NCBI GenBank assembly: GCA_002779355.1
Contig: PEWS01000027.1
Span: 1-39,667 of the forward strand
Source of the DNA: Candidatus Nealsonbacteria bacterium CG07_land_8_20_14_0_80_39_13
GTDB taxonomy: Bacteria > Patescibacteriota > Minisyncoccia > Minisyncoccales > GCA-002779355
DNA: 39,667 nucleotides
Direction of reading: 5' to 3'
The notes beneath the pieces were generated by a model. The model did no database searches. It was given only the letters and a program-made list of their open reading frames with translations, and was not told the origin of the DNA. A program made the translations under genes and the position numbers. Position 1 is the first letter of the stretch. Every line of letters begins with the position of its first letter. Below, piece by piece: positions 324-38,607 of this stretch.

Positions 324-701
324 TTCTGTATGTAAATCTACGCTACCCTACGCGCTCTTTTAAATTTTAAACGGCCTTAATATTCGGAATGTCCGGAATG
401 GTCAGAATAAATTAAAAAGAGAAAGATGAAGGTAAAAATATAAAAATTAAAAATATAAAATATAAAAATAAAAATCTAAAAAAATGAACGCACGGGTAAT
501 GATTGCAAGAAGGAGAAAAAGAATTAAAGGAAAAACAGAAACAGGAGGGGGTTGCGGATGGACAGGGCTTCTTAAAAAAGATCCAAACAGACGTCATCTT
601 CGTGCCTGAACAAACCCCTTGGAGAACCATTCTTTTATCGGCTCTTCTTTTTTTGCTTTAAGTTTTGCGGAAAAAATGATAAGCTGTATTTATATTAAGG
701 T

Positions 702-1815
702 ATGGAAAATTTGAAAGAAAAACAAGAGAAACAGGAAGAGCTGCAAAAAAGAATCCTCGCGCTTGAGGACTGTCTTTGACGTTGAGAAAAAGAAAAACAT
801 GATAATTGAGATGGAAAAAGAAACCCTGTCTCCTAATTTTTGGGAGAGAAGGGAGGACGCAGTCAGGATCAGTCAGGAATTATCCCAGTTGAAAGAGGAT
901 GTGGCGGAAATGAATTGCCTGAAAGAGGATTTTGAGATAATAAGGGACTTAGGCGAAGAATTAGAGCTGGAAAAATTGGAAAAGAGAATAAAAGAAAAAG
1001 AAAAAATGCTTTTTCTTTCCGGAAAGTATGACAAGGGCAACGCCTTCCTGACTATTTATTCCGGGGCAGGCGGACAGGATGCGCAGGATTGGGTGGCTAT
1101 TCTGTTGAGAATGTATGAAAAATATTGTTCCCGCAAGAATTTTAAAGTAAAGATTTTGGATCAGGCCTTCGGAGAAGGAGGCGGGCCGGAAGGAAGAATT
1201 GGAGTAAAGCAAGTTTCTTTAGAAATTATCGGTCCATACGCCTACGGTCTTTTAAGAGGAGAAATGGGAGTTCATAGGTTGGTCAGGATTTCTCCTTTTT
1301 CTTCTAAATCTTTAAGGCACACCTCATTTACTTTAGTGGAGGTTTTGCCCGAAGTGAAGGAAGCGGGAGATATGATTGTTCCTCCGGATGATTTGAGAGT
1401 TGATCTTTATCGTTCTTCAGGGCCGGGCGGGCAGAATGTCAATAAAAGAGAGACAGCAGTCAGAATAACTCATTTGCCGACAGGAATTGTTGTCGCCTGC
1501 CAATCAGAAAGGTTGCAGGGTTCAAACAAACAGAAAGCGCTGGAAATTCTTTATTCAAAACTTTATGAATTGAATAAAGATAACAAAAAAAAGGAGATGT
1601 CTGAAATAAAGGGAGGAAGGATTTCAGCTGAATGGGGAAGCCAGATAAGATCTTATGTCGTTCATCCTTATAAAATGGTAAAAGATTTAAGGACGGATGT
1701 TGAGACTTCCGATGTGGATAAAATTTTAGACGGGGGACTTGATGATTTCATTGAAGCGGAACTTAAATTACCTGCCCGCAATGCTGAATATAGCGATGCA
1801 GGCGGGAAAAGCTAA
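702..1815 (+). CDS. prfB: Peptide chain release factor 2, made by +1 programmed frameshift (ORF0 702-776, then 778-1815)
   Basis: ORF0 reads MENLKEKQEKQEELQKRILALEDCL and ends at CTT TGA C (774-780), the classic RF2 shift site. The downstream frame carries the SPF and GGQ motifs (RISPFSS, SGPGGQNVNK). Confidence 0.93.
1771..1806 (+). repeat. GC-rich palindromic element, in-frame copy at the prfB C-terminus
   Basis: CCTGCCCGCAATGCT-GAATAT-AGCGATGCAGGCGGG. The arms pair, with wobbles and mismatches. It encodes PARNAEYSDAGG. Confidence 0.7.
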
Positions 1816-14762: not shown

Positions 14763-15455
14763 ATGCCCTACAGAAAAGAACAGTTTATCAATGAAGAGAT
14801 TTATCATATTGTTATAAGGGGAATTGACGAAAACTTAATTTTTAAGAATATAGACGATTATTATCGCGGCATTTTTTCCATATACGAATTTAATACAATA
14901 AAACAGGTAACTATAAGGGAGCGTCGCAGTATTCGCGCTAAAATAAAAGCCGAAATGAAAACTAACAGAGACCCGATCTCTGTAACCGATTCGAGGGAAA
15001 AATTAGTGGAGATTTTATGTTTTTGCTTTATGCCAAACCACATGCATTTGCTTTTAAGGCAAATTAAAGACAATGGCATTAGTAAATTCATGGCCAAATT
15101 TGGTATTGGATACGGAGGATATTTTAATAGGAAATATAGCAGAAAGGGGTATGTTTTTCAGCAAAGATTTTTCGCTGTTCGTGTAAAAACCCAAAAACAA
15201 TTTGAAACAGTTTTTGTTTATATCCATGCCAATCCAGTATCATTAATTGAGCCGAAATGGAAAGAAAAGGGAATCAAAAATCCAAGAAAGGTAATTAATT
15301 TTTTAGAAAATTATAAATGGTCAAGCTATCAAGACTATGTTGGTAAAAAGAATTTTCCTTCCGTTACGGATAGAGAATTTATGTCAAAGACCATGGGTGA
15401 TGAGGAGGGATGTAGAGAAATTATTAAAAATTGGATAGAATATAAAGAAGAATAA
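14763..15455 (+). CDS. HUH Y1 transposase, IS200-like / REP-associated tyrosine transposase (RAYT)-like
   Basis: HUH motif in FMPNHMHLLL. Y1-type C-terminal region VYIHANPV. N-terminal YHIVIRG strand. Confidence 0.8.
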   Translation: MPYRKEQFINEEIYHIVIRGIDENLIFKNIDDYYRGIFSIYEFNTIKQVTIRERRSIRAKIKAEMKTNRDPISVTDSREKLVEILCFCFMPNHMHLLLRQIKDNGISKFMAKFGIGYGGYFNRKYSRKGYVFQQRFFAVRVKTQKQFETVFVYIHANPVSLIEPKWKEKGIKNPRKVINFLENYKWSSYQDYVGKKNFPSVTDREFMSKTMGDEEGCREIIKNWIEYKEE

Positions 15456-15476
15456 TTACAGAGATCGGGTCTCTGT
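15456..15476. repeat. 21-nt hairpin; exact reverse complement of 14965-14985 inside the transposase ORF
   Basis: TTACAGAGATCGGGTCTCTGT here and ACAGAGACCCGATCTCTGTAA inside the ORF. Each has an 8-bp stem (TACAGAGA/TCTCTGTA). Confidence 0.85.
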
Positions 15477-20075: not shown

Positions 20076-22079
20076 ATGATGGTTAAAAAGGAAGATTCAT
20101 TTTATCCGGGCAAGGAGTTTCAAAAAAGGGCTTGGGTAAAAAATAAATCCATTTATAAGGAAGCGGAAAAAAGTCCGATTAAATTTTGGGAGAAATTAGC
20201 CAAAGAACTTTTTTGGTTTAAGAAATGGAAGAAGGCATTTACTCACGACCCGAAGAAATTAAAGTTTCAATGGTTTTCCGGCGGAAAAATTAACATCACC
20301 GCTGATATTTTTGAAAACAATTTTCTCGGCTGGGATTCGGCTGAAAGCGGAATAAAAAACAAGCTGGCTTTGATTTGGGAACCGGAATCAACGGATGAGA
20401 AAGAGAGAAAATTTACCTATCAGGAATTATTTTCAGAAGTTAATCGTTTCGCCAACGCTCTTAAGAAAAGCGGGGTAAAGAAAGGCGATAGGGTGGGAAT
20501 ATACTTGCCGATGATTCCGGAGGCGGTGATTTCTATGCTTGCTTGCGCCAGAATAGGCGCTGTTCATGCTGTTGTTTTTTCCGCTTTTTCCGCAGAATCC
20601 TTAAGGGTTCGGCTTCAAGATACGAAAGCAAAAGTTTTAATTACTGTTGACGGTTATCATAGGAGAGGGAAAGTGGTTGACCTGAAGAAAAATGCTGATG
20701 AGGGAATTAAAGAGACAAGCATAGAAAAAATAATTATTTTCAAAAGAGCGGGGAATCCCGTTGACTGGAAGGATGGCAGGGATTTTTGGGCAAGCGAATT
20801 AACTAAGAATGAGAGCGATTATTGTAAACCGGCTATAATGGACGCTGAGGATTTGATGTTTATTCTTTACACCAGTGGCAGTACCGGCAAGCCAAAGGGT
20901 TGCGAGCATGTTTGTGGCGGTTATGCTGTTCAGTCATATTGGACAGGCAAATGGATATTTGATTTACATGGACCTGCCCGCAATGCTTCCGCCACAACTT
21001 CGCAGATGTTGGCGGATGCAGGCGGGGATGATATTTTTTGGTGCACAGCTGATATCGGCTGGGTGACAGGCCACACCTACGCCGTGTATTCTCCTTTGCT
21101 TAACGGAGCAACCTCTGTTATTTTTGAAGGCGCTCCTGATTGGCCGGGACCGGATAGGTGGGCTCAAATTATTGAGAAATACGGAATTACAGTTTTTTAT
21201 ACTGCGCCTACAGCTATCAGAATGTTTAAAAAGATGGGAGCGGAAATTATTAAAAAATACGGTTTTAAGACATTGCGGGTAATCGGTTCAGTAGGGGAAC
21301 CCATAGATGATACGGCTTGGAATTGGTATTTTGAAGAAGTTGGGAGAGGCAACTGTCCTCTGGTTGATACTTGGTGGCAGACGGAAACAGGGGGAATTTT
21401 GATCAGCTCTCTGCCCGGAGTCGGCCCCTTCAAGCCGTCTTTTACCGGCCGACCTTTTCCCGGATTAAAATTTGATATTTTGGATGACAATGGAAAGCCT
21501 GTTAAAACTGGAAAAGAGGGGAATTTGGTTTTATTCCCGCCCTTTTCCCCTTCGCTGTTGAGGGGAATTTATAAGAATTTTAAAAAATATAAGGAAACTT
21601 ATTGGAGTCAGTATGGAGGTAAAATATATGTTACTTCAGATACTGCTCTTAAAGATAAAAATGGTTTGATCAGAATAGTCGGCAGAGCCGATGACGTGAT
21701 TAAAGTGGCCGGGCATAGGATTACTACCGGTGAAATGGAGGCTGTAATTAATCGCTGTCCAGAAATAGCCGAGTGCGCAGTGATAGGAGTTTTTGATGAA
21801 ATAAAAGGTCAGGTTCCTGTAGTTTTTGCTGATATTAAGGGTGTGGAGAGAGATGTTGAAAAAATTAAGGAAGATATTGTCGTGCAAATACGGAAAGAAA
21901 TAGGGCCAATAGCGCTACCTAAGCAGGTCTACTTGGTTGACGAATTGCCAAAAACCCGTTCAGGCAAAATTATGCGCAGGATTTTGAGAAAATTATTTAC
22001 CGGAGAAGAATTAGGCGATTTATCCACTCTCTCAAATCCGGAAGCAGTAGAAGAAATCAGAAACCAAATAATTAAATAA
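20076..22079 (+). CDS. acs: Acetyl-CoA synthetase (AMP-forming)
   Basis: YTSGSTGKPKG, WCTADIGWVTGH, DTWWQTETGG, PKTRSGKIMRRILRK. Confidence 0.95.
   Translation: MMVKKEDSFYPGKEFQKRAWVKNKSIYKEAEKSPIKFWEKLAKELFWFKKWKKAFTHDPKKLKFQWFSGGKINITADIFENNFLGWDSAESGIKNKLALIWEPESTDEKERKFTYQELFSEVNRFANALKKSGVKKGDRVGIYLPMIPEAVISMLACARIGAVHAVVFSAFSAESLRVRLQDTKAKVLITVDGYHRRGKVVDLKKNADEGIKETSIEKIIIFKRAGNPVDWKDGRDFWASELTKNESDYCKPAIMDAEDLMFILYTSGSTGKPKGCEHVCGGYAVQSYWTGKWIFDLHGPARNASATTSQMLADAGGDDIFWCTADIGWVTGHTYAVYSPLLNGATSVIFEGAPDWPGPDRWAQIIEKYGITVFYTAPTAIRMFKKMGAEIIKKYGFKTLRVIGSVGEPIDDTAWNWYFEEVGRGNCPLVDTWWQTETGGILISSLPGVGPFKPSFTGRPFPGLKFDILDDNGKPVKTGKEGNLVLFPPFSPSLLRGIYKNFKKYKETYWSQYGGKIYVTSDTALKDKNGLIRIVGRADDVIKVAGHRITTGEMEAVINRCPEIAECAVIGVFDEIKGQVPVVFADIKGVERDVEKIKEDIVVQIRKEIGPIALPKQVYLVDELPKTRSGKIMRRILRKLFTGEELGDLSTLSNPEAVEEIRNQIIK
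20973..21027 (+). repeat. GC-rich palindromic element, long variant, in frame in acs
   Basis: CCTGCCCGCAATGCT-TCCGCCA..TGGCGGA-TGCAGGCGGGG. It encodes PARNASATTSQMLADAGG. Confidence 0.8.
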
Positions 22080-30015: not shown

Positions 30016-31140
30016 TTATTCTTCCTGCTCTTCGGCTGATTCCATGGCTTCTATAATGGGGTCAAGTCTTCCTTCCATTATCTCTTCAATGCCGTGGAAA
30101 GATTTTTTAATTCGGTGGTCGGTTACTCTGTCTTGAGGAAAATTGTAGGTTCTGTTTTTCTCCGCTCTTTTGGCCCTTCCTATTTGTCCTTTTCTGTCCC
30201 CGCCTAATTTTTGAGCCTCTTCCTCCTCTCTTATTTCAAGGAGGCGAGCTGATAGAACGCTCAAGGCGTTTTCTTTATTTTGGAGCTGGTTTCTTTCGGT
30301 CTGGGATTCAACGACCAATCCTGTCGGGATATGGACTATTCTTACAGCCGTCTCTCTTTTATTGACGTTTTGCCCGCCCGGTCCTGACGAACGGCAATAT
30401 TCAATTTTTAATTCATCAGGTTTAATTTCCAATTGAGTATTTTTCGGTTTCGGAAGAATGGCCACTGAAACGGTGGAAGTGTGTATTCTTCCGCTTTTTT
30501 CCGTTTCGGGAATTCTCTGGACTCTATGGACCCCGGACTCGTTTTTCATTTTAGAGAAAATATCGCCGTTCCCGTCCGCATCGCTATGCGAAGCGTTGCG
30601 GGTGGATTCCAGCTGAAATACGATTTCTTTAAATCCGCCAGTTTCAGTAGGGCTGGAATTAAGGATTTTTTGCCTCCAACCTTGCTGTTCCGCGAACCTT
30701 GAATACATCTTGAATAAATCTCCGACGAATAAAGCTGCTTCGTCTCCCCCTGCGCCGGCCCTGATTTCAACGATTATGTCTTGCGGTTCAGAGCTTTCTT
30801 TCTGGCCTTTGATTAATTTTTTTAATTCTTTTTCCAAGACCTCCTTTCTTTCCCTGAATTGAGTAATCTCAATTTCAGCCAAGGAGGATAATTCGGGGCC
30901 TTCTTTCCCATTCAGGATCGCCCTGTTTTCTTCAATTCTGTCGTCAATTTCTTTTATTTCTTTTTCTTTCTCAATTATTTTTTCAAGATAGCTTTTCCTT
31001 TTAGATAGTTCTTCAAATTTTTTCCAGCCCGCATCGCTACGCGAAGCGTTGCTGGCGGGCCAATCAGAAATCAGCTCAGGGTTGCTGAGCTGATTTAAAA
31101 TTTCTTTATATTCCCGCTGAATATCGCTTAGGTTATCCAT
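30016..31140 (-). CDS. prfA: Peptide chain release factor 1
   Basis: P-E-T tripeptide (RIPETEKSGRIHTS), GGQ (SGPGGQNVNK), and DHR near the C-terminus. Confidence 0.93.
   Translation of the reverse strand: MDNLSDIQREYKEILNQLSNPELISDWPASNASRSDAGWKKFEELSKRKSYLEKIIEKEKEIKEIDDRIEENRAILNGKEGPELSSLAEIEITQFRERKEVLEKELKKLIKGQKESSEPQDIIVEIRAGAGGDEAALFVGDLFKMYSRFAEQQGWRQKILNSSPTETGGFKEIVFQLESTRNASHSDADGNGDIFSKMKNESGVHRVQRIPETEKSGRIHTSTVSVAILPKPKNTQLEIKPDELKIEYCRSSGPGGQNVNKRETAVRIVHIPTGLVVESQTERNQLQNKENALSVLSARLLEIREEEEAQKLGGDRKGQIGRAKRAEKNRTYNFPQDRVTDHRIKKSFHGIEEIMEGRLDPIIEAMESAEEQEE
30571..30605 (-). repeat. GC-rich palindromic element, in-frame copy inside prfA
   Basis: On the coding strand: CCACCCGCAACGCTTCGCATAGCGATGCGGACGGG. 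It encodes TRNASHSDADG. Confidence 0.8.
31024..31062 (-). repeat. GC-rich palindromic element, in-frame copy near the prfA N-terminus
   Basis: On the coding strand: TGGCCCGCCAGCAACGCTTCGCGTAGCGATGCGGGCTGG. It encodes WPASNASRSDAGW. Confidence 0.8.
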
Positions 31141-36422: not shown

Positions 36423-36854
36423 AGAAGTTCCTTCTTAGTCAGGAGGATTTCAATGATTTTTCTAGATTTGAAGATGCAGAGAGCTGCATTTTCAAGGACG
36501 AAAAATTCCCGTGCGCCTTCACGGGATAGGTGTTTAAGGGAGCACGACAATAATTGTCCTCTGCCCCTATATTTCTAAGTTCGGAATTACATTATTAAAA
36601 AATTACGAATTTAGAAATGCTCCGGTCCCGCTGAAAGCGGGACGGGGGTTTAAAGAAAGAAGTCGGAAGCGCTTTCGCGACGGGGATATCTCTTTCCAGT
36701 TCTTCGCAAGAAGAACAATCTCTGTTACGAAAGCACCCCCGGCTTTTTTCAGTCCAGAGGACTATTCAGCCCAGAGAGCTTTCAAGTTGTAAATGTGTCA
36801 ATGAGGAGGTAAAATAGAAAAATAAGAACAATATTTAGAATATTTTTGAACTCT

Positions 36855-37814
36855 ATGAAAACTCGAAAGGAAGATAATATAATTTACCATGGTAGTAATT
36901 GGGTATTGGTTGAAACCCAAGATGATAATCTTTTTGATATATTGTACAAAGAAGGGTACGAGAGAGTGGTTTTGGTGAATCAATTGGGTGTGGACGGTAC
37001 ATTTGAATATATTATTGGCAAAAAAACAGAAAAAACGGATGATTTTCCGGTCGGCCCAGAAACCGAAGAAGGATCGATACTTTTCGAATTAAATAAATTA
37101 GAGATGGGTTGGGCTGGCAGTATTCAGTATGGTGGAGCGCCAATAAATACTGATGGTTCGAGATCATTGCTTACTCCGCAGATGGTCATCAGTGTTATTA
37201 ATAAAGTTGTCAATAAAAAGGATGAACAAAATTTTCTAATCGGCAAAGATCAACAATTTGAAATTGACCCGGAAAAATTATTCTCCAAAGAATCATCATG
37301 CTATCAAGTGGAAACAGATCGGCTGGGCAAAGTATCCTATGTAAACATAGATAACGCCGCTACAACTCCGCCTTTTATATCGGTGCAAAATGGCGTTAAT
37401 GATTATTTAAAGACTTATGGTTCAGTTCATCGTGGAGCTGGTACTAAATCAAAAATATCTACTGATATTTACGAACAAACACGGCAAGTCATTAAAAATT
37501 TTGTTGGGGCTCCGGAAAATTTTTATGTTCTTTTTTCCGGAAACACAACTGGAGCCATGAATAATGTAGCCTATTTTTTCTCATTTCTTGATGGAAAGGT
37601 GGCGGTATCGGAAATAGAGCATAGCTCATCTTGGTTGCCATGGATTAAAGCTGAAGGTGAAAGATCGTTGGGAGCAAATCGCGTTGATTTTGCACATGTG
37701 CATGAAACACAAGAAAAAATACAAGAAGCGGGTCGTGAAATGGTTTTGAGGTATCCACTCAATAGCGAAGGTGAGTTTGACCTCGCTGGCATTGAAGAAA
37801 TGCTAAAAAAATAA
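36855..37814 (+). CDS. Class V aminotransferase / cysteine desulfurase-like PLP enzyme, 5' fragment with ~150-aa N-terminal extension
   Basis: NIDNAATTPPF, SVHRGAG, FSGNTTGAMN, EIEHSS..PW. It ends at a TAA right after an A7 run. Confidence 0.75.
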   Translation: MKTRKEDNIIYHGSNWVLVETQDDNLFDILYKEGYERVVLVNQLGVDGTFEYIIGKKTEKTDDFPVGPETEEGSILFELNKLEMGWAGSIQYGGAPINTDGSRSLLTPQMVISVINKVVNKKDEQNFLIGKDQQFEIDPEKLFSKESSCYQVETDRLGKVSYVNIDNAATTPPFISVQNGVNDYLKTYGSVHRGAGTKSKISTDIYEQTRQVIKNFVGAPENFYVLFSGNTTGAMNNVAYFFSFLDGKVAVSEIEHSSSWLPWIKAEGERSLGANRVDFAHVHETQEKIQEAGREMVLRYPLNSEGEFDLAGIEEMLKK

Positions 37815-37833: not shown

Positions 37834-38607
37834 TTGACTGCCTCGTCAAATCTGACTGGTTATCGTCCAGATATTAAAAAAATTGGCGAACTTGTTCATA
37901 AATATGGAGCATACTATATTATCGATGCTTGCCAATTTTTGCAACACCACAAAGTTGATATGATGGAAATGGGAATAGACTTTCTGGCCGTTTTCGGACA
38001 CAAATTTTACGCGCCTTATGGTGGTGGTTTTCTTATTGGGCCAAAAAACTTTTTGGATGAATTTTTGCCGTATCAGATTGGCGGTGGCAACTTGCCCTAC
38101 ATTACAAGGGAGGGTGTGTTCTTGCGCTATAAAAATCAATTAGCGCATGATCCCGGTACACCAAACGCCGTTGGCGCTGTCTCTATGGCTATCGCGCTTA
38201 ATCAATTGAAAAAAATCGGAATCGAAAAAATTGAATCATATGAATCAAATTTAGCGAGAGAAGCATTTGACGTTTTGAAAAAAAACGAAAAGGTTCGTCT
38301 GCTTGTAAAGAGTAATCACTTAAGTACAGTAATACCTTTTATCATAGAAGGGCAGGATTCACAGATAGTTGCCGAACGCTTAAATAAAGAATTTGGAATA
38401 GGCGTTCGCGCTGGAAGTTTTTGCGTGTATGACGTGGTAAGAAATCTTTTGGGAATAGAGGACGAGCAGAAAATAATTGAGGCCGTTAATCATGGCGATA
38501 CCTCGCTTATACCAGGAATTATTCGGGCATCTTTTGCGCTTTGCAACTCAAGAAATGATGTAAAAAGATTTATTCAAGCAATAAATTGCGTTACTCAAAA
38601 TAATTAA
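37834..38607 (+). CDS. Class V aminotransferase-like PLP enzyme, 3' fragment (frame open from 37807)
   Basis: TASSNLTGY, IIDACQ, the PLP-lysine block FGHKFYAPYGGGFLIG, and VRAGSFC. Confidence 0.75.
   Translation: MTASSNLTGYRPDIKKIGELVHKYGAYYIIDACQFLQHHKVDMMEMGIDFLAVFGHKFYAPYGGGFLIGPKNFLDEFLPYQIGGGNLPYITREGVFLRYKNQLAHDPGTPNAVGAVSMAIALNQLKKIGIEKIESYESNLAREAFDVLKKNEKVRLLVKSNHLSTVIPFIIEGQDSQIVAERLNKEFGIGVRAGSFCVYDVVRNLLGIEDEQKIIEAVNHGDTSLIPGIIRASFALCNSRNDVKRFIQAINCVTQNN

Follow-up and report, generated by a model that had tools for sequence, protein, structure and literature searches.

In the prfA gene of Candidatus Nealsonbacteria bacterium CG07_land_8_20_14_0_80_39_13, which encodes release factor 1 (RF1), a short palindromic segment lies in a part of the protein that normally runs straight through. 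What kind of DNA is this segment, how did it enter an essential gene, and is it read as protein? The gene lies on contig PEWS01000027.1, of which positions 1 to 39,667 were analyzed; this whole stretch of 39,667 nucleotides (nt) is called the window below. The initial annotation had read the segment as the second copy within RF1 of a dispersed palindromic element, and the comparisons reported here agree, in that the segment is an exact gain of 36 nt and its family is dispersed. We consider it probable that this family, of GC-rich pseudo-palindromic units of 36 bp, is mobile and non-autonomous; its units would move as single-stranded DNA and would be retained where the encoded protein loop is tolerated.

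An exact 36-nt insertion in prfA

The prfA gene (30016..31140, minus strand) is an intact open reading frame (ORF) of 374 aa with PCRF and RF-1 domains, the GGQ motif and the conserved core, and its neighbors are rpmE, rpsB and tsf, in a window that is AT-rich (~38% GC). The segment in question, hereafter copy B, occupies 31024..31059 on the minus strand and has the sequence CCCGCCAGCAACGCTTCGCGTAGCGATGCGGGCTGG, the A7/T34 variant of the element. The plus strand at 31024-31062 reads CCAGCCCGCATCGCTACGCGAAGCGTTGCTGGCGGGCCA, with the reverse complement TGGCCCGCCAGCAACGCTTCGCGTAGCGATGCGGGCTGG; the GCCCGC/GCGGGC pairing and the GTAG tetranucleotide that had been annotated are both present. Copy B is translated as PASNASRSDAGW in RF1 domain 1, where the surrounding protein reads ...PELISDWPASNASRSDAGWKKFEEL, and the predicted read-through sequence across the insert is ...SDWPASNASRSDAGWKK.... 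Most RF1 homologs are 345-348 aa long, and the relatives of the window RF1 are labelled Parcubacteria, Pacebacteria or Nealsonbacteria. With the bacterial 16S rRNA gene of the window, these labels place the source in the Candidate Phyla Radiation (CPR), or Patescibacteria. The annotation that RF1 is normally uninterrupted here was borne out, the three-residue junction being unbroken in 83 of 120 homologs.

The closest homolog, P0002 (347 aa; 78% identity by BLASTP, 84% in the alignment), lacks both of the extra segments of the window protein. At the position of copy B (site B), P0002 reads ATT TCT GAT TGG|AAA AAA TTT GAA GAA and the window reads ATT TCT GAT TGG [CCC GCC AGC AAC GCT TCG CGT AGC GAT GCG GGC TGG] AAA AAA TTT GAA GAA. 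At the position of the other segment, copy A (site A), the corresponding sequences are CTG GAA|AAT GGC and CTG GAA [TCC ACC CGC AAC GCT TCG CAT AGC GAT GCG GAC GGG] AAC GGC. Relative to these empty sites each position gained exactly 36 nt and the flanks were undisturbed; the gain of copy B was scored relative to L127. Site A shows no flanking duplication. At site B a TGG stands on either side, so that the boundary is ambiguous by 3 nt and a duplication of 0 or 3 nt fits equally; the limits of copy B were taken as 31024-31059 despite this ambiguity.

The element occurs four times in the window, where copies were located by repeat finding, a degenerate pattern and nhmmer. The 26-nt degenerate pattern matched three loci, with 0.00 expected from 100 shuffles, and nhmmer recovered three 36-nt copies with E-values of 4e-11 to 1e-10 (4.6e-11 for copy B), so the similarity between copies that the annotation had put forward for testing is far above chance. 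Copy A (30571..30606, minus strand) has the sequence TCCACCCGCAACGCTTCGCATAGCGATGCGGACGGG, translated as STRNASHSDADG in a loop of RF1 domain 2, with three differences from the consensus. Copy C (1771..1806, plus strand; 36 nt) lies in prfB (703..1815, plus strand), which encodes release factor 2 (RF2) and has at 773-779 the CTT TGA C site of classical programmed +1 frameshifting; this copy provides most of the final 15 RF2 residues (LPARNAEYSDAGGKS, up to the stop). Copy D (20973..21026, plus strand) is a 54-nt composite in acs, the acetyl-CoA synthetase gene, in which the family arms (CCTGCCCGCAATGCT...GATGCAGGCGGG) surround a different, longer palindromic core, and it is translated as PARNASATTSQMLADAGG.

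All four copies are intragenic, lie in sense orientation and use one shared frame that gives (P)A(R/S)NA(S/E)x(S)DA(G/D)G. Since five of the six frames of the consensus element are open, this agreement is not forced by stop codons. The prfA gene is one of the few minus-strand genes of the window, and copies A and B are flipped along with it; orientation therefore follows the gene and not the chromosome strand.

A dispersed family

One genome of each species was scanned with a pattern 24 nt long, in which 19 positions of the element were fixed. The scan gave at least 120 loci, and the matches listed, on which the family-wide counts below are based, hold 122 copies. Their hosts in the CPR include Paceibacterota, Moranii-, Nomura-, Davies-, Roizman- and Berkelbacteria, Saccharibacteria and others, and hosts outside the CPR include Verrucomicrobiota, Kiritimatiellia, Bdellovibrionales, uncultured Gammaproteobacteria and Terriglobales. 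The GC content of the loci ranges from 29 to 66%, and the matches outside the CPR are therefore not mis-binned CPR DNA. Two main forms, CCTGCCCGCAATGCTTCGCATAGCGATGCAGGCGGG (32 copies) and CCCGCCCGCAACGCTTCGCGTAGCGATGCGGGCGGG (14 copies), were found, and the positions left free by the pattern are still at least 90% conserved. Three contigs in IMG/VR contain the element; neither main variant matched the PLSDB plasmids or the INPHARED phages. No published description was found by sequence, peptide or topic in a literature coverage that was incomplete.

The listed copies lie in genes, in spacers, in other copies and, in one case, in a tRNA-Arg gene. About nine copies are nested exactly at the center (TTCG|CRTA) of another copy, in either orientation. 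In the tRNA case (L107, a metagenome-assembled genome (MAG) with 57% GC; ~690-726, minus strand), one copy interrupts the anticodon arm of tRNA-Arg(CCG); ARAGORN detected this tRNA only after the 36 nt were deleted, and the restored tRNA is perfect. In a Verrucomicrobia MAG (L021, L034 and L070) the 36-mer lies inside a 168-nt repeat, present on three contigs at 96-98% identity, and on the strength of this repeat the element appears to travel within a larger unit in some hosts.

Two other loci, L019 and L023, were considered as tRNA insertions and rejected, because they hold no intact tRNA but a duplicated tRNA 3' fragment. In these Verrucomicrobia loci (L019 1321-1662 and L023 331-741) the element lies 11-14 nt past the stop of a small GIY-YIG nuclease gene and directly before the duplicated fragment (...GGTTCGAACCC...CACCA), downstream of tRNA-Val. 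The arrangement looks like the edge of an integrated element.

The DNA fold

A simple symmetric hairpin was ruled out by pair counts. It is 84.6% paired, below nearly all shuffled controls, and its pairs 3-34 and 7-30 are disrupted in many copies. Both copy B and the AT-rich consensus have an offset DNA fold as their minimum-free-energy structure, ....(((((..(((.((((...)))).))).))))), in which a trinucleotide loop is enclosed by helices of 4 bp (inner), 3 bp (middle) and 5 bp (outer). For copy B this fold has an energy of -12.4 kcal/mol (z -3.05); the fold of copy D reaches -16.4 kcal/mol. Over 51 distinct copies, pairing in the offset fold amounts to 94.6%, and the pairs 5-36, 7-34 (CG, AU, UA) and 12-30 show compensatory changes. 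For its mirror, the fold of the other strand, pairing amounts to 94.8% and the compensated pairs are 3-30 and 12-20; none of 500 shuffles reached either pairing value. The two main forms differ at positions 3, 12, 20 and 30, which make up one linked set of pairs.

The inner stem-loop reads GCGTAGC in the sense strand and GCGAAGC in the antisense strand. Both match GCGNAGC, which is described as an extraordinarily stable DNA mini-hairpin motif (PMC13037366), and GCTTCGC is at least 94% conserved at the positions left free by the search. Together, the compensatory changes on both strands support an offset hairpin that could form on each strand of the DNA.

A candidate enzyme and the relation to REP sequences

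The only candidate for a mobilizing enzyme in the window is a gene of 230 aa (14763..15455, plus strand) that resembles Y1 (HUH) transposases of the IS200/RAYT type, RAYT standing for tyrosine transposases associated with repetitive extragenic palindromic (REP) sequences. It is single-copy and lies between the enolase and phosphoglycerate mutase genes. The protein passes the Pfam model PF01797 (E 7e-10, 39.5 bits against a cut-off of 23), and it scores 46.8 bits against a cut-off of 80 for the NCBIfam model REP_Tyr_transpos. A hairpin, CAGAGACCCGATCTCTG, occurs inside the gene (14966-14982) and, inverted, just past its stop (15459-15475). The family of this protein is large and well conserved across many metagenomes, with best matches 65-71% identical, and the homologs, which lie amid housekeeping genes, likewise have small hairpins with CCCG-type loops on their flanks. 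A tblastn search with the Y1 protein gave one match in the 120 listed loci. All-against-all ORF clustering around the 120 listed loci returned only housekeeping families (aminoacyl-tRNA synthetases, ABC ATPases, RF1 and GTPases), together with small GIY-YIG and four-helix-bundle genes whose arrangement relative to the copies is not fixed.

Are the copies, then, canonical REP sequences or REPINs (REP doublets forming hairpins), moved by a RAYT, with GTAG as the recognition tag and the window Y1 protein as the cognate transposase? The initial annotation had leaned this way, and of all the alternatives this one survives best. The element is a short GC-rich stem-loop repeat that forms stable folds and occurs in many copies, four of them in 39.7 kb of the window besides the at least 120 genome loci; a gene like Y1_Tnp and REP_Tyr_transpos lies 15 kb away; and site A has no target duplication. 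Intragenic REPs have been documented, including in Verrucomicrobia, and they add residues, may occur twice in one ORF and were found at the same recB site in two Xanthomonas species (PMC3733652). In REPs, however, an unpaired GTAG (or CGTC) tag stands at one end, more than 90% of members keep GTAG, and RAYT genes stand between their own REPs or between inverted repeats (PMC3733652). Here the tetranucleotide is apical (positions 20-23), the ends of the element are CCYGCC and GGCRGG, and position 20 is G in 69 of the 122 listed copies (57% GTAG) and A in 51. The tetranucleotide is ATAG in copies A and C and is missing from copy D. GTAG, which the annotation had taken as a REP/RAYT hallmark, does not serve as one in this family, where the copies other than those 69 mostly read ATAG.

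The presence of a RAYT-like gene in the window is the part of that reading that stands; the part that ties the gene to the element falters, since the gene is bordered by CAGAGAYCGGRTCTCTG and 60 kb of homologous loci are free of the element. Further points against a canonical REP system are the NCBIfam score below cut-off, the intragenic position of all window copies and the near-identity of the sequence across phyla. We regard a canonical REP system as rather unlikely.

Reading frame and the encoded loop

By the figures as reported, 71 of the 122 listed copies lie in ORFs of at least 450 nt and 52 have no long ORF. Among the 71 copies, 38 use the frame that encodes PARNAS, 12 use the other open sense frame, 21 are antisense and none uses the sense frame with the TAG stop. 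Where the locus has less than 48% GC, 29 of 44 copies use the PARNAS frame, as do most of 61 unique metagenome sites of the copy-B variant. From the empty stop-bearing frame and the skew among the others it follows that the copies are probably translated and not spliced or bypassed, and we infer that the element is read through as peptide. In RF1, copy B would add a hydrophilic loop of 12 residues, because its length equals 12 codons and the frame used has no stop. An AlphaFold model of RF1 built from 20 sequences (mean predicted local distance difference test (pLDDT) score 72) placed both inserts as low-confidence coil between secondary-structure elements. Insert B is coil between helices 21-25 and 37-77 (pLDDT ~55), and residues 182-191 of insert A have pLDDT <50. 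Other frames of the element encode hydrophobic peptides, for example LPAMLRIAMQAG, and selection for a small polar loop is the simplest account of the bias.

The frame bias could also mean that the peptide PARNASxSDAGG is itself what is selected, as a module with a function of its own, for instance a flexible linker or recognition tag, that has spread between proteins. All four window copies and 38 of the 71 long-ORF copies use this one of five open frames, as do most of the 61 A7/T34 sites, and three of the four differences between the main variants fall at third codon positions, with the change at position 20 swapping His and Arg. Set against these points are the 52 listed copies without a long ORF, the use of other frames and of antisense copies, and host proteins that are unrelated and receive the insert in surface loops. 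Base pairing explains the variable positions equally well. A selected peptide module is improbable on this evidence.

Still less probable is that the element acts as a mini-intron removed from the RNA, or is bypassed by the ribosome in a programmed manner, leaving the protein unaltered. Removal or bypass would rescue the tRNA-Arg(CCG) gene, which the copy in its anticodon arm would otherwise inactivate, and the stable hairpin does bring the ends of the element together. The frame skew, with the stop-bearing sense frame used in 0 of 71 long ORFs, and the lengths of the window copies (36 nt for the three simple ones and 54 nt for copy D, all multiples of three) weigh against it, because an element removed before or during decoding would have no need of either.

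A recurrent insertion site in RF1

Three of the four coding copies of the window lie in release-factor genes, as annotated, two in prfA and one in prfB, with the fourth in acs. By post hoc arithmetic, the probability that three of four copies fall within 5.8% of the window is ~7e-4. The enrichment of release factors as a class that the annotation had suggested testing was not established: elsewhere, RF1 holds one of the 122 listed genome copies (L094, at a third RF1 site) and one of the 61 metagenome sites. The element motif was found in 7 of 120 RF1 homologs and in 0 of 120 Y1 homologs.

Site B itself is occupied by some insert in ~22 of the 120 RF1 homologs. The inserts are of three kinds, namely the 36-bp element, a shorter relative that encodes PASAKATAGKE and an unrelated 48-nt unit. 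In an RF1 tree the sequences with an occupied site B are scattered among empty relatives, and site B has therefore either gained inserts repeatedly at one nucleotide position or lost them repeatedly and exactly. Under either history the element would move precisely. In one case (P0010) the insert is identical at 36 of 36 positions although the RF1 proteins are 62% identical and the flanking codons differ. The recurrent insertion hot spot at the exact position of site B is real. RF1 appears to have a few permissive or preferred sites that are struck repeatedly; we do not extend this to a targeting of release factors in general.

These comparisons also bear on the suggestion that copy B is an old, lineage-specific loop of RF1, inherited vertically and lost many times. 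Occupation of the same site in ~22 of 120 RF1s of the Parcubacteria type would fit this, as would the A7/T34 variant shared by several of the occupants. A vertically inherited loop is already contradicted by the exact 36-nt gap in the nearest relative, by the scatter on the tree, by the identical insert in the diverged gene of P0010 and by the occurrence of the same 36-mer in acs, prfB, spacers, a tRNA gene and other phyla, and we give it scarcely any weight.

The shorter relative (~30 nt; P0013, P0018, P0022, P0064, P0091, P0094, P0102 and P0109) has, at the protein level, arm residues (PAS...AGK) like those of the 36-bp element and a different core. Together with copy D it suggests a superfamily with conserved arms and exchangeable cores. 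The unrelated in-frame repeat was found in L224 (501-1676, RF1 of another Parcubacterium) and in P0009, P0038, P0040 and P0069. It encodes GDESKDSSSPFAGARV, consists of a 48-nt unit in up to three tandem copies and lies two codons downstream of site B, and it has the 9-mer ACGCTTCGC in common with the 36-bp element. A perfect 12-bp hairpin (31068..31096, minus strand) is part of the prfA coding sequence and lies 8 nt 5' of site B, with arms AAATCAGCTCAG and CTGAGCTGATTT; it encodes ...NQLSNPELI.... Compensatory changes, of which some are non-synonymous (CAA/TTG, AAC/GTT, GAGATC/GATCTC), keep it in seven RF1 genes. The hairpin may be a determinant of the hot spot or an unrelated structure of the mRNA or DNA.

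The identical RF1 occurs in seven contigs from independent JGI and ENA assemblies, and copy B is therefore not an assembly artefact. Six of these contigs, compared as a check for strain polymorphism, are at least 99.8% identical to the window without gaps and contain both RF1 copies; differing gene lengths among such near-identical contigs are gene-calling differences only. A short palindrome that turns up in many metagenome assemblies might be suspected of being adapter sequence or part of a chimera, but the probability of an artefact of assembly or sequencing is negligible, given these independent contigs, the position of the copies always in frame inside conserved genes, and their divergence with compensatory changes.

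Target choice

The annotation had also suggested comparing flanks for a target preference. The comparison gave no general target consensus, but TGG directly precedes 14 of the 61 unique metagenome sites of the A7/T34 variant, which itself ends in CTGG; one of the TGG-preceded sites is another case of RF1 site B (L147). Of all 122 listed copies, 7 have on their left flank the same trinucleotide with which the element ends, where 1.55 were expected (p=0.001), and the mirror test on the right flank of the same copies showed no enrichment. T is rare just before the element and A just after it. A target-site duplication was considered and rejected, since site A has none, the TGG at site B is ambiguous and the 3-nt match occurs in only those seven copies. 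The flanks point to a partial preference for targets that end like the 3' end of the element (TGG for A7/T34). The asymmetry of the flanks and the covarying helix between positions 5-9 and the 3' end resemble the guide and cleavage-site pairing of insertion sequences (IS) of the IS200/IS605 family, at a minority of sites only.

A second recurrent insertion site besides RF1 is the GW|Y.TGD position in AMP-binding (acyl-CoA synthetase-type) genes, where the A7/T34 variant follows the W in three lineages (L103, L156 and L222).

Other features of the window

At gathering thresholds, Rfam models matched only the 16S rRNA and three tRNAs in the whole window, with no match at the element. A class-V aminotransferase (cysteine desulfurase-like) is encoded by two adjacent ORFs on the plus strand (36846-37814 and 37834-38607), which correspond to the N- and C-terminal portions of the Pfam model and may represent a pseudogene, a frameshift or a truly split gene.

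The favored explanation

The best reading of the evidence is a selfish hairpin element that inserts seamlessly and is tolerated as a loop. The element would move as folded single-stranded DNA, and an enzyme supplied in trans would cut and rejoin it without a scar. An HUH/Y1-type enzyme (IS200/RAYT-like) is the leading candidate for this role, although it is a guess that we hold only tentatively. Insertion would partly prefer sites whose last three bases match the 3' end of the element, and selection would then retain only copies in permissive surface loops, mostly in the frame that encodes a small polar peptide.

Several observations weigh against parts of this explanation. The Y1 gene of the window is flanked by CAGAGAYCGGRTCTCTG hairpins that are unrelated to the 36-bp element, three homologous Y1 loci with a total of 60 kb contain no copy of the 36-mer, and no gene family recurs beside the copies in the clustering around the 120 listed loci. 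The TGG rule is obeyed at only about a quarter of sites, and a general target consensus is absent. Targeting of hairpin apices is not general (junctions in loops compared with controls, Fisher p=0.7; strong hairpins, p=0.2), nor is targeting next to hairpins (flank structure compared with controls, p=0.55 and 0.43). Translation was deduced from the frame statistics, and if insertion favors targets that happen to match codon boundaries, part of the frame bias could stem from that preference. The copies behind the covariation counts are related and partly clonal and were found with a pattern that fixed 19 positions, and the switch at positions 3, 12, 20 and 30 runs between AT and GC, so genome composition could contribute to it.

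A more ambitious version of the mobile-element explanation is possible, and we offer it with distinctly less confidence. The family may represent an undescribed class of mobile DNA, a double-hairpin unit of codon length (36 bp) with an offset hairpin capped by GCGNAGC on each strand. Such a unit would spread horizontally between distant phyla, be adapted to coding sequence and return to particular sites (after TGG in RF1; GW|Y.TGD), with its target set by the internal 5-nt helix and its movement carried out by an enzyme not yet connected with it.

Comparison with known systems

Among known systems REP/REPIN-RAYT is an obvious comparison, as REPs too are GC-rich stem-loops of 20-40 bp in many copies and are thought to be moved as single-stranded hairpins by a Y1 HUH enzyme. 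The 36-bp element differs from them in having no terminal GTAG/CGTC tag and no RAYT gene flanked by it, in being mostly intragenic in the window, in a length fixed at 12 codons, and in an offset fold on both strands. It is also near-identical across phyla, whereas REP families are typically lineage-specific.

Rickettsia palindromic elements (RPEs) are reportedly selfish palindromes that lie in frame in protein and RNA genes and are read through as peptide; Ogata et al. 2000 are said to have described them as ~100-150 bp long, with CGTC-tagged relatives and confined to Rickettsia and close relatives. RPEs have been listed among the palindromic insertions that interrupt genes (PMC3733652). The 36-bp element likewise appears to be inserted in frame and read through. 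By description it differs from RPEs in being shorter, in occurring in several phyla, in nesting within itself and in lacking the CGTC tag.

Members of the IS200/IS605 family insert seamlessly, without target duplication, 3' of a short target; they move as folded single-stranded hairpins and use internal guides (IS608). Short internal sequences are described as pairing with the element end and the target (PMC6006769). The 36-bp element is similar in its seamless gain, in the 5-bp helix that pairs positions 5-9 with the 3' end (32-36) and in a left flank that tends to repeat that 3' end. It differs in being a single 36-bp unit without separate left and right ends and in following a target rule only in part, and no transposase gene recurs beside the listed copies.

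GC clusters and bypass elements of fungal mitochondria are also short GC-rich palindromes in AT-rich, gene-dense genomes, in coding sequence too, and some are skipped by the ribosome. Those elements are organellar, and the frame statistics of the 36-bp element favor ordinary translation. A classical miniature inverted-repeat transposable element has terminal inverted repeats and a target-site duplication of fixed length, and the 36-bp element lacks such a duplication. Selfish palindromic DNA tolerated in frame is already known from Rickettsia RPEs and intragenic REPs (PMC3733652). The 36-bp element stands apart in the fixed size of 12 codons, the near-identity across phyla, the self-nesting, the offset fold on two strands and the recurrent sites in essential genes.

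Implications

For annotation the consequences are practical. Inserts of this kind lengthen and distort the alignments of marker proteins (RF1, aminoacyl-tRNA synthetases, ribosomal protein S2) on which phylogenies and checks of genome completeness are based, and copies of the element can break the detection of tRNA genes. The recurrent RF1 site marks a position at which release factor 1 tolerates extra residues. If it is true that the internal helix sets the target, nature would here supply a tiny unit for DNA insertion that can be reprogrammed. For one 36-mer to occur in distant phyla, either horizontal transfer must be frequent or the mobilizing enzyme must be widely shared, which is unusual for REP-like repeats. 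CPR genomes are tiny and gene-dense with little spacer DNA, and a 12-codon element with five of six frames open shows how selfish DNA can persist in them inside essential genes.

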